From the IMG/VR virus record IMGVR_UViG_3300028653_000010: 64,000 nucleotides of DNA. One strand, given 5' to 3'. Made by a program: the position numbers and the translations under genes. A model generated the notes under the pieces. The model did not search any database, was not told where the DNA came from, and was given only the letters and a program-made list of their open reading frames with translations. This document shows, piece by piece, positions 16,945-18,117 of the stretch (positions within the stretch are counted from its first letter, which is position 1; the number at the start of each line of letters is the position of its first letter). Source of the stretch: a virus.

Positions 16945-17910
16945 TTACAGTCTTCGAACCGGTGAGCTGCCAACTGGCAACCCACGACTCTTGATCAGGT
17001 TGTAGAGAGATGCCTCTATACTCGAAGATTTTGAGGAACTAACCCCAGCATCTCTGAGTAGTATCTTGGCATCTTGAATGTTGGTCAATCCTTCACAGAT
17101 ACCCACCGTAGTAGCTACCAATTCGCAGATGTCAGTAGCATTTGCCATGTGGATGACATTCTGGGCACCAAGCAACCTTTCCCAGTAGTGCGCTACACTT
17201 GACTTATCTCCACCGCTAGTATCCCTTGGAATGACAAAGAATACGTTGTACTTCTGCTGACACTCACGAACGATATCCTCAGTCTTGATATCAACCCCTT
17301 GCAGGTTGTACCCAAGAATACTATCGATTGACGAGCTCTTCACGACAGGGAACGGTAGTTCATCTCCTAGGATAAAAAGGTAACCCTTCTTGTTGCGCTT
17401 GATGAGAGAGTCAATCTCTGTATGACGTGCGAAAAAATAGAAGACGTTCTGGTACGATTCTTCCCCGTAAGGTCCACCATTGCCCTCCAACCAGAAGTGC
17501 TCCAGATCCTCATCCATCTGATTACTGGCTTCGAACTGACCGACTTGCAACGATCCCTTGTCGGAGAATTCGTCCCCGATAGCTCCAAACAAAAAGTGAG
17601 CATCGCGTATCCCTACCTTGAGGGCTATTTTATTCATATTCGGAAGGCTTTTTTGAACTCCAATGGGTACTTTTTGCATCGACCCAGTGACATCGAGCAT
17701 GATGGAAATGGGGATCGATTCAGGATGCTCTAGCGAATCTCTTGACTCCCGAACCTTGACTCCTTTTGGATCAAGCCGGGGGTGAACCTTCTGCTCACTC
17801 TTCGGCTTGGCAATGACTGCTTCGTGATGGGCAAAAGCAGACTTACCGCTTGTAGCGCGCTCCTTCGCCTTATCGTTGTAGTATTCTTCACTCCAACTTC
17901 CACCACCCAT
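16945..17910 (-). CDS. von Willebrand factor A domain protein
   Basis: MIDAS DVTGSM, GAIGD, EGNGG...ESY, FILGDE; N-terminus MGGGSWS. Confidence 0.85.
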   Translation of the reverse strand: MGGGSWSEEYYNDKAKERATSGKSAFAHHEAVIAKPKSEQKVHPRLDPKGVKVRESRDSLEHPESIPISIMLDVTGSMQKVPIGVQKSLPNMNKIALKVGIRDAHFLFGAIGDEFSDKGSLQVGQFEASNQMDEDLEHFWLEGNGGPYGEESYQNVFYFFARHTEIDSLIKRNKKGYLFILGDELPFPVVKSSSIDSILGYNLQGVDIKTEDIVRECQQKYNVFFVIPRDTSGGDKSSVAHYWERLLGAQNVIHMANATDICELVATTVGICEGLTNIQDAKILLRDAGVSSSKSSSIEASLYNLIKSRGLPVGSSPVRRL

Positions 17911-17928
17911 GGCGGGCCTCTTCTTTCT

Positions 17929-18117
17929 TTAGATGACCCAAGGCCTGTGATACCTATCGGGCCACCATTTCTTCTTTTTTGGTTGACTTTCAGGCTGGAT
18001 TGACGTCGGAGTACTTGACCCCCTACTTGGTGATGTAGGGTTTTCCTGCCGAGAGCGCCGGTTTAGACGATCCGCGGCTCGTTCATAATACTCACGAGAG
18101 TAACCCATCGAACCCAT
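17929..18117 (-). CDS. 62-aa peptide whose N-terminus resembles the adjacent vWA protein
   Basis: Exactly fills the nadV-vWA gap; MGSMGYSREYY aligns with MGGGSWSEEYY. Confidence 0.6.
   Translation of the reverse strand: MGSMGYSREYYERAADRLNRRSRQENPTSPSRGSSTPTSIQPESQPKKKKWWPDRYHRPWVI

Follow-up and report, generated by a model that had tools for sequence, protein, structure and literature searches.

The window analysed here is the whole of a 64,000-nt stretch of viral DNA, the IMG/VR virus record IMGVR_UViG_3300028653_000010. Positions 13521-20361 are occupied by seven genes, all co-oriented in one block on the minus strand (Table 1). This report concerns one of them, a small open reading frame (ORF) for a 62-aa peptide, which is located between the gene of a NAMPT and that of a von Willebrand factor A (vWA)-like protein. 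Its ATG is found 3 nt past the NAMPT stop codon, and the vWA-like gene that follows has a Shine-Dalgarno (SD) sequence of its own, AAGAGG, inside the 18-nt gap after the peptide stop codon. Promoter-like and terminator-like sites in the block showed no excess over the shuffle expectation, and an Rfam scan of positions 17600-18400 gave no match. A DNA search for close phage relatives retrieved 18 records, matched in NAMPT fragments alone.

The original prediction, made from the letters of this stretch, held that the peptide and the vWA-like protein share an in-register N-terminus. Both ORFs were re-read identically and the resemblance stands: 7 of 15 residues are the same, in register and without gaps. 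Met-1 and Gly-2 (hereafter MG), Tyr-6 and Tyr-11 of the peptide are aligned with the vWA signature, and 9 of the 11 family-constrained positions hold a residue known at that place in the vWA family. Ranked by likeness to the vWA start, and with that start itself set aside, the peptide comes first among the 3,878 window starts that precede 15 open codons; two starts tie for second place at 6/15. The peptide is basic (isoelectric point 10.4), with a middle rich in Ser, Pro, Arg and Lys; 9 Ser, 7 Pro and 9 Arg are counted in its 62 residues. It was thus correctly described as Ser/Pro-rich after its start, although DRYHRP, which had been given as its end, is followed by three more residues in the true C-terminus, ...D-R-Y-H-R-P-W-V-I. 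No match to the peptide was obtained in Pfam, PHROGs, NCBIfam or PADLOC, by tblastn against 50,697 GenBank phage records (E up to 10), by word-indexed protein search or in the ESM Atlas. Considered alone, the evidence of the window is suggestive, and it is the relatives that settle the question.

An MG-initiated small ORF is present at 11 of 11 NAMPT-vWA junctions, that of the window and those of 10 further loci, with a frame open for 59-94 codons. The junctions by name are the window, L002, L006, L007, L009, L088, L087, L089, L090 and L102, with a gap of 215-352 nt; L086, which is the same contig as L002, was left out of the junction count. The small ORF occupies the same place in L002/L006, L007, L009/L088, L087 and L089/L090/L102, and there are nine distinct peptide sequences of 59-94 residues. 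A five-peptide profile run against 1.84 billion representative proteins found four members, two of them new (P0125 and P0126) and two already in the loci. The vWA proteins of the lineages with a small ORF are 46-78% identical to that of the window. Between the window and L002, codons 1-17 of the small ORF differ once at first, twice at second and nine times at third codon positions. For the last nine codons, the corresponding differences are three, one and five in the same pair, and two, two and five and one, one and six in two other pairwise comparisons. This third-position bias at both ends points to a constraint acting on the protein at both ends. The middle of the peptide cannot be aligned between lineages and corresponds to a fast-evolving linker rich in Pro, Thr and Ser. 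In L007 the ATG overlaps the NAMPT stop codon (TAATG), and the L089/L090 small ORF has its own SD sequence. The small ORF is restricted to loci with NAMPT directly upstream of vWA. These comparisons indicate that it is a genuine protein-coding gene, confined to one jumbo-phage clade in which NAMPT precedes vWA. The expectation that it should recur in related phages is therefore borne out, with codon changes that fall mainly at third positions.

At two other loci, L101 (1277-1531) and L107 (4843-4989), which belong to more distant phages, small ORFs rich in Pro, Thr and Ala with an M-G (or M-T-M-G) start also lie just upstream of a vWA gene whose product is 37-39% identical. They may belong to the same family as the peptide, an assignment that their low complexity makes uncertain.

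The sequence that the peptide resembles is itself strongly constrained. The vWA-like protein has 1,173 matches in a protein search; separate searches gave 524 or more matches in bacterial genomes and 220 phage records. Nearly without exception the family starts with M-G-x3-[W/Y]-[S/N]-x-[D/E/N]-Φ-Y. Examination was carried out on 122 homologues, 120 of similar length drawn from the 1,173 and two longer ones. An MG start is seen in 116; in three of the remaining six (P0002, P0058 and P0076) the motif is internal, after a likely mis-called start, and the other three are N-terminal truncations. Within the 116, position 6 is Trp (104) or Tyr (12), position 7 is Ser in 102, position 9 is Asp (91), Asn (15) or Glu (7), thus acidic in 98, position 11 is Tyr in 113 and position 14 is Arg in 83, while positions 3-4 are small residues. 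In an alignment of 105 sequences Met-1 and Gly-2 are invariant and Trp-6 and Tyr-11 nearly so. At the locus level, the MG start is found in 106 of 108 phage or metagenome loci (the exceptions being one frameshifted copy and one that reads I-G) and in 80 of 80 bacterial copies, mostly from Actinomycetota, also from Planctomycetota, Chloroflexota and one myxobacterium. Distant phage copies (I3, phiTY18, RHph_TM40 and a faecal phage) likewise keep MG, an aromatic residue at 6 and Tyr-11. The conservation of the MG start in vWA homologues beside PurA-like genes, proposed as a check in the original prediction, is thus essentially invariant.

The start codon is ATG in all 183 vWA genes, with an SD-like site upstream in 171, and 134 have no alternative in-frame start further upstream. 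Gly-2 is encoded by GGA (98), GGC (49), GGT (35) or GGG (1). A constant ATG together with three common Gly codons places the conservation at the protein level and at the true N-terminus. Four over-length vWA forms retain the MG start, their extra length being an internal intein-like insertion, and no N-terminal fusion was found among the over-length forms.

How far the signature is kept on the peptides was scored with a position matrix derived from residues 1-18 of 93 distant vWA proteins. The close relatives P0001-P0022 were excluded, among them P0002, P0003, P0007 and P0012, whose vWA proteins are 86%, 79%, 69% and 61% identical. The small ORFs score 24.8 (L009/L088), 10.8 (L002/L006), 10.3 (L007), 9.8 (L090/L102) and 4.9 (L089). 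The background, about 1.56 Mb of loci, yields chance starts above 5 on three occasions, at 5.8 and 5.3 in 755 kb and, as the highest, at 6.0 in the 803 kb of the 80 bacterial loci, where, this one aside, 40,876 starts include no mimic-like ORF. All nine peptides begin with MG, eight have an aromatic residue at position 6 and seven have Tyr-11, the remainder being diverged. Since this signature survives detached from the vWA fold, it probably serves for recognition and is not a structural element of that fold.

The nucleotide sequences bear on the origin of the likeness. In the window, only 20 of the 45 nt of the motif are identical between the two genes, and the Ser, Glu and Tyr residues that they have in common are encoded by different codons; with 7 of 15 residues the same, this speaks for selection and against a recent gene conversion. 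The first 18 nt of the small ORF match those of the adjacent vWA gene at 16 positions in L007 and 17 in L009, where the likeness extends from -11 to +18. Ahead of the L089/L090 small ORF, a stretch of 28 nt matches vWA upstream regions at 10-18 positions (14-18 in five of six comparisons), compared to 4-10 for the other peptides. Shared upstream nucleotides and first codons fit a tandem duplication of the vWA ribosome-binding region to which a new tail was fused later. The small ORF therefore probably derives from a tandem duplication of the vWA 5' end, comprising the ribosome-binding region and the first dozen or so codons. The possibility that the tail is a remnant of the ancestral upstream kinase gene was left unadopted: its R-P-W-V-I resembles the kinase tail, with a register that is off by one.

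The tail carries a motif of another kind. The pattern [STDN]-R-[YF]-x-R-[IVPR]-[LMW], typically P-T-R-Y-E-R-I-L, has nine copies in window coding frames, where shuffles give 0.44. The peptides carry it in most lineages. So do at least eight other, otherwise unrelated proteins of the window phage, among them the kinase-like protein (in a loop near the N-terminus), a 115-aa Cys-rich protein and several without family match, often at the extreme C-terminus and after a Pro. Family searches returned nothing informative for these eight. In the window peptide D-R-Y-H-R-P-W stops two residues short of the C-terminus. At the aligned place the peptides of L087, L009 and P0126 exhibit the canonical T-R-F-[D/E]-R-I-L, which is doubled in L009 and P0126, so that the description of the peptide tail as a variant of the phage R-Y-x-R motif is upheld by its orthologues. 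The hydrophobic pair that follows the second Arg is missing in the window, L002 and L007 peptides, which have [P/R]-W instead of I-L. R55 and R58 are invariant in the five-peptide alignment. The Arg codons vary between motif copies; the motif thus belongs to the protein level, and a DNA-level element behind it was ruled out on the same grounds. In a scan of loci L001-L109 (the bacterial loci L110-L189 lie outside it) the motif is confined to the phage lineage of the window. Searches with back-translated R-[YF]-x-R-I-L gave 14 hits against 2 for the control in the L088 phage contig, 7 against 1 in the L092 phage genome and 2 against 1 in the contig of L090, where the peptide is devoid of this tail. 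This indicates that the tail follows the phage's own motif usage and suggests that it may be functional.

Table 1. Genes and sequence features of the minus-strand block, with the motif copies of the window
Feature	Position	Strand	Remarks
NrtR-like Nudix plus winged-helix protein	19537..20361	-	opens the block; family searches
NAMPT (nicotinamide phosphoribosyltransferase)	18121..19527	-	directly 5' of small ORF; family searches
Small ORF, 62 aa (stop included in span)	17929..18117	-	basic, probably disordered peptide; ORF list, relatives
Copied vWA start signature in peptide codons 1-17 (M1, G2, aromatic 6, S7, E9, Y10, Y11)	18067..18117	-	
Peptide tail D-R-Y-H-R-P-W, diverged copy of the clade motif	17938..17958	-	
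Spacer of 18 nt from peptide stop codon to vWA ATG; holds the AAGAGG ribosome-binding site	17911..17928	-	
vWA-like protein, 321 aa, phrog_2971	16945..17910	-	mid-gene of pseudokinase/vWA/PurA-like cassette; PHROGs 1e-48
vWA N-terminal signature, M1/G2 invariant, W6/Y11 nearly so	17860..17910	-	family alignment
D-V-T-G-S, residues 73-77, MIDAS-like metal-site motif	17680..17694	-	D73, T75, S77 invariant (105 sequences)
PurA-like enzyme (adenylosuccinate-synthetase fold)	15559..16932	-	PF00709 at 5.3e-56
Kinase-like protein without J domain	14657..15562	-	T-R-Y-E-R-I-M at 15410-15430, between first strands of kinase fold
NMNAT-like nucleotidyltransferase	13521..14660	-	closes the block; weak matches
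Copies of the R-[Y/F]-x-R motif (first residue)	339, 2983, 15430, 17958, 20545, 36174, 49208, 51108, 52370; also 379-948		

The vWA-like gene belongs to a cassette whose other members are candidate readers of its N-terminus. In the 41 loci flanked on either side by 2.5 kb or more, a PurA-like gene is found in 38, a kinase gene in 33 and both in 32. The order NrtR-like, kinase, vWA, PurA-like is that of 58 of the 80 bacterial loci, and in most loci the kinase gene is directly 5' of vWA. The window clade has a different arrangement, in which the kinase gene comes after the PurA-like gene and genes for NAMPT and the NMNAT-like protein are inserted. The PurA-like enzyme falls under every NCBIfam cut-off for PurA and PurZ (159 bits against 402 for PurA and 38.7 against 300 for PurZ). 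A Gemmataceae genome with a solitary vWA gene has a PurA-like paralogue (43% identity) elsewhere. L056 has neither partner within 5 kb and its vWA still keeps the motif; L100, a single record (75% complete) without either partner, has a degenerate vWA N-terminus. No kinase was detectable in phiTY18 and RHph_TM40 (recorded as complete) or in MT835469 (a clone scaffold), which possess the vWA gene, the PurA-like gene and the motif; as a control, this search recovered the kinase from 4 of 4 records expected to have it, down to 26% identity. The persistence of the motif in these three kinase-less phages favours the PurA-like enzyme as the reader. Overall, the PurA-like enzyme is the most likely reader, the vWA body comes second and the pseudokinase is the least likely. 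The suggestion that the N-terminus serves as a docking site for the pseudokinase has accordingly lost ground. The conserved small ORF, the MG start of the vWA protein and the R-Y-x-R tail of the peptide hold, which leaves the original interpretation partly supported.

The kinase-like proteins display further variation. An H-P-D motif, which indicates a J domain, lies upstream of the kinase domain in 96 of the 128 kinases with a complete N-terminal region. It is absent from the window clade, where the J domain has disappeared and the R-Y-x-R loop motif has been acquired. The kinase C-tail is strongly conserved (...L-Y-G-P-R-x-F-R-P-F-x-M-P; loci L001-L189). In the three kinase-less phages another gene, conserved among them, is located just upstream of vWA (L003 5215-5919, L004 4738-5568 and L005 5391-5999). 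Its product has 200-276 aa and a Met/Gly-rich end, and it might replace the kinase.

The reading that we prefer, plausible and still short of probable, is that the peptide is an N-terminal mimic, either a competitor or a second client, directed at the reader of a free Gly end; it would have been duplicated from vWA and would bear a tail built on the clade motif. Methionine aminopeptidase acts best before a Gly-2, so that the initiator Met would be removed and the Gly end left free. The free Gly, together with the aromatic residues, would then be read in trans by a partner from the cassette, and the peptide would engage the same reader. Its tail would tie the resulting complex to a binder of the R-Y-x-R motif. 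The peptide would thus be two-ended and probably disordered, with the signature in residues 1-17, a fast linker and a motif tail. As originally predicted, it may act as a substrate, a tag or a competitor. That the first dozen or so residues of vWA have been cut from the fold and are nonetheless kept under selection on an unrelated tail marks them as a functional handle of the system, and suggests that this free end, headed by glycine, is a transferable tag which a partner protein recognises.

Several observations weigh against this mimicry. Taken alone, the pairwise BLASTP comparison of peptide and vWA is non-significant (E=0.13), and the matrix score of the window peptide, -5.0 (rank 5 of 3,508 window starts), is weak. 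The signature has gaps, with Leu at position 6 in L087 and Phe-10 and Ser-11 in place of a Tyr-11 in L089/L090. L089 and L090 differ from each other at seven first, three second and six third codon positions, hence without third-position bias. The near-identity of the first 18 nt implies that gene conversion could maintain part of the likeness in L007 and L009. Most cassettes, including all 80 bacterial loci, work without such a peptide, and there is none at I3 genes 270-273 in the cluster C mycobacteriophages. Finally, peptide and vWA are intact in L002 beside a broken PurA-like gene, which fits poorly with a strict dependence on the PurA-like enzyme.

The last case concerns a 6-kb contig (IMGVR_UViG_3300044766_000074; L002 3569-6014). 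NAMPT is reduced there to its last ~90 codons, and the PurA-like gene, short of its ~94 initial codons, is divided between two frames, while the small ORF and vWA are intact. The near-identical L006 has a full-length vWA end. L002 may thus represent a defective variant, or else an error of assembly.

Other explanations account for part of the same data. The signature could be a ligand of the vWA protein itself, plugging into the vWA body (the face of the metal-ion-dependent adhesion site, MIDAS, or another groove) in cis or head-to-tail, in which case the peptide would be a regulator or an adaptor that links vWA to a receptor of R-Y-x-R. In PMC9503650 and more widely, vWA domains are treated as modules for peptide binding, with a metal site that accepts an acidic ligand. 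Position 9 is Asp or Glu in most of the family, and the motif persists wherever vWA does, even in L056 with no partner nearby. However, just 6 of the 9 peptides are acidic at position 8 or 9, position 9 is Asn in 15 of the 116 family members, and the explanation does not say why the motif should start at residue 1 with a Gly. We regard it as unlikely, if the foremost of the alternatives. For the same count of acidic residues, a MIDAS pseudo-ligand was not adopted as the function shared by vWA and peptides. More doubtful is an N-terminal nucleotide ligation, in which the PurA-like enzyme would, like PurA, activate a 6-oxopurine nucleotide and the α-amine of Gly-1 would replace aspartate, with the peptide as a second substrate. 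The product would be a protein or peptide joined at its N-terminus to a purine nucleotide, comparable to the ribosomal precursor of a peptide-nucleotide. Such chemistry would agree with a motif fixed at the extreme N-terminus, with the invariant Gly-2 and the lack of N-terminal fusions, with small residues at 3-4 that would give a flexible leader, with the nearly constant co-occurrence of PurA-like and vWA genes and with an enzyme far under the PurA and PurZ cut-offs. Yet L002 retains peptide and vWA beside its broken PurA-like gene, and binding in a pocket without any chemistry explains an invariant free N-terminus equally well. The extended form of this proposal, in which the PurA-like enzyme joins a purine nucleotide to the Gly-1 amine of both vWA and peptide and the capped peptide is delivered by its R-Y-x-R tail to a hub shared by at least eight phage proteins, appears less probable again.

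The small ORF might also be a functionless by-product of the NAMPT rearrangement, kept for translational coupling between NAMPT and vWA or refreshed by gene conversion. The likeness to vWA across ribosome-binding region and initial codons in L089/L090 and L009, the near-identical first 18 nt in L007 and L009, the restriction of the ORF to loci with NAMPT upstream and the fast evolution of the linker are all compatible with such a leftover. They have to be set against the third-position bias at both ends between the window and L002, the retention of the motif through different codons in the window, a frame that stays open across lineages whose vWA proteins are as divergent as those described above, and a tail that tracks the motif usage of its own phage, and on balance a leftover looks improbable, slightly below the extended ligation scheme. 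We find least credible, indeed very improbable, that the motif is a docking site for the kinase-like protein or is phosphorylated by it on Ser-7 or Tyr-11, with the peptide in the role of pseudosubstrate. The kinase gene directly precedes vWA in most loci, both residues are common in the family (Tyr-11 in 113/116, Ser-7 in 102/116) and the R-Y-x-R motif is common to peptide and kinase in the window clade, but phiTY18, RHph_TM40 and MT835469 keep the motif with no detectable kinase. A signal for virion packaging is unlikely as well, since the signature is kept in 80 of 80 chromosomal bacterial copies.

The mimicry proposed here has a parallel in the IAP-binding motif, where Smac/DIABLO and the neo-N-terminus of caspase-9 compete for one BIR-domain pocket. 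By analogy, the motif would need a free N-terminus and is copied on a second, unrelated protein. The IAP system is eukaryotic and uses a cleavage-exposed, Ala-first tetrapeptide with a BIR receptor, whereas the window motif is Gly-first and spans ~11-17 residues. In microcin C, the heptapeptide MccA is modified at its C-terminus by the E1-like MccB through a P-N bond. The window locus similarly encodes a very small ribosomal peptide near a nucleotide-activating ligase fold; it differs in that this fold is that of PurA instead of the E1-like MccB, that conservation is N-terminal and that neither export nor immunity genes were identified. The neighbouring enzyme shares the PurA fold (PF00709) with PurA and PurZ but is tied to a vWA protein, not to purine genes. 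The eukaryotic N-myristoylation signal, M-G-x-x-x-S/T, also combines an invariant Met-Gly start with a constrained position 6-7; it differs at position 6, where 116 of 116 vWA members have Trp or Tyr instead of Ser or Thr, and to our knowledge bacteria and phages have no N-myristoyltransferase. A vWA-type protein beside a kinase-fold protein is likewise a feature of the TerY-P triad and of YeaG/YeaH (DUF444). Unlike these, the window cassette includes no PP2C phosphatase and has a PurA-like enzyme instead.

With the general cassette (NrtR, a pseudokinase with or without J domain, vWA and PurA-like), the window shares all four genes, the invariant vWA start and D-x-T-G-S. Its clade differs by the J-less kinase placed after the PurA-like gene, the insertion of NAMPT and NMNAT-like genes and the addition of the mimic ORF. 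No description of the cassette, of the vWA N-terminus or of the peptide was found in article texts, a search that did not extend to supplementary tables, which could list cassette neighbourhoods. PMC13464706 defines NARP3 as PnuC plus NadR, unrelated to the cassette, and the vWA systems treated in passages of PMC9503650 and PMC13622651 are others than that of the window. The 62-aa peptide is new. The cassette as a whole, for which no published description was found, is very common and often placed under an NrtR-type sensor of NAD/ADP-ribose. Should the Gly amine prove to be modified, a new protein-nucleotide chemistry would operate in phage-host conflicts over NAD; ligation, if true, would add a new protein-nucleotide linkage and a new class of peptide-nucleotide.

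The vWA-like protein itself matches no Pfam, NCBIfam or PADLOC model in the window, and two PDB profile searches returned nothing relevant. Weak matches appear in its 105 aligned members, to DUF444 in five (best E 0.00059) and to VWA_CoxE in one (E 0.19), and vWA clusters of the ESM Atlas score no higher than 0.82. Tested against the MIDAS-type D-x-S-x-S, D73-V-T75-G-S77 fits as a D-x-T-x-S variant that is invariant in the 105. The vWA assignment rests on this D-x-T-G-S motif, on the weak DUF444 and VWA_CoxE matches and on the Atlas neighbours. The C-terminus of the protein is also conserved (...R-L; 16945-16950), Arg-320 being nearly invariant in the 105 sequences. The intein-like insert of ~250 residues in P0020, P0112, P0121 and P0122 lies exactly at the K-K-G-Y / L-F-I-L-G-D-E strand. 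Some mycobacteriophage copies match residues 1-177 alone, one of them being annotated 'HNH endonuclease', and the Mycobacterium phage matches H70-H79 possibly contain the same intein-like insertion. At L029 (5001-6984), two tandem vWA paralogues both exhibit the N-terminal signature.

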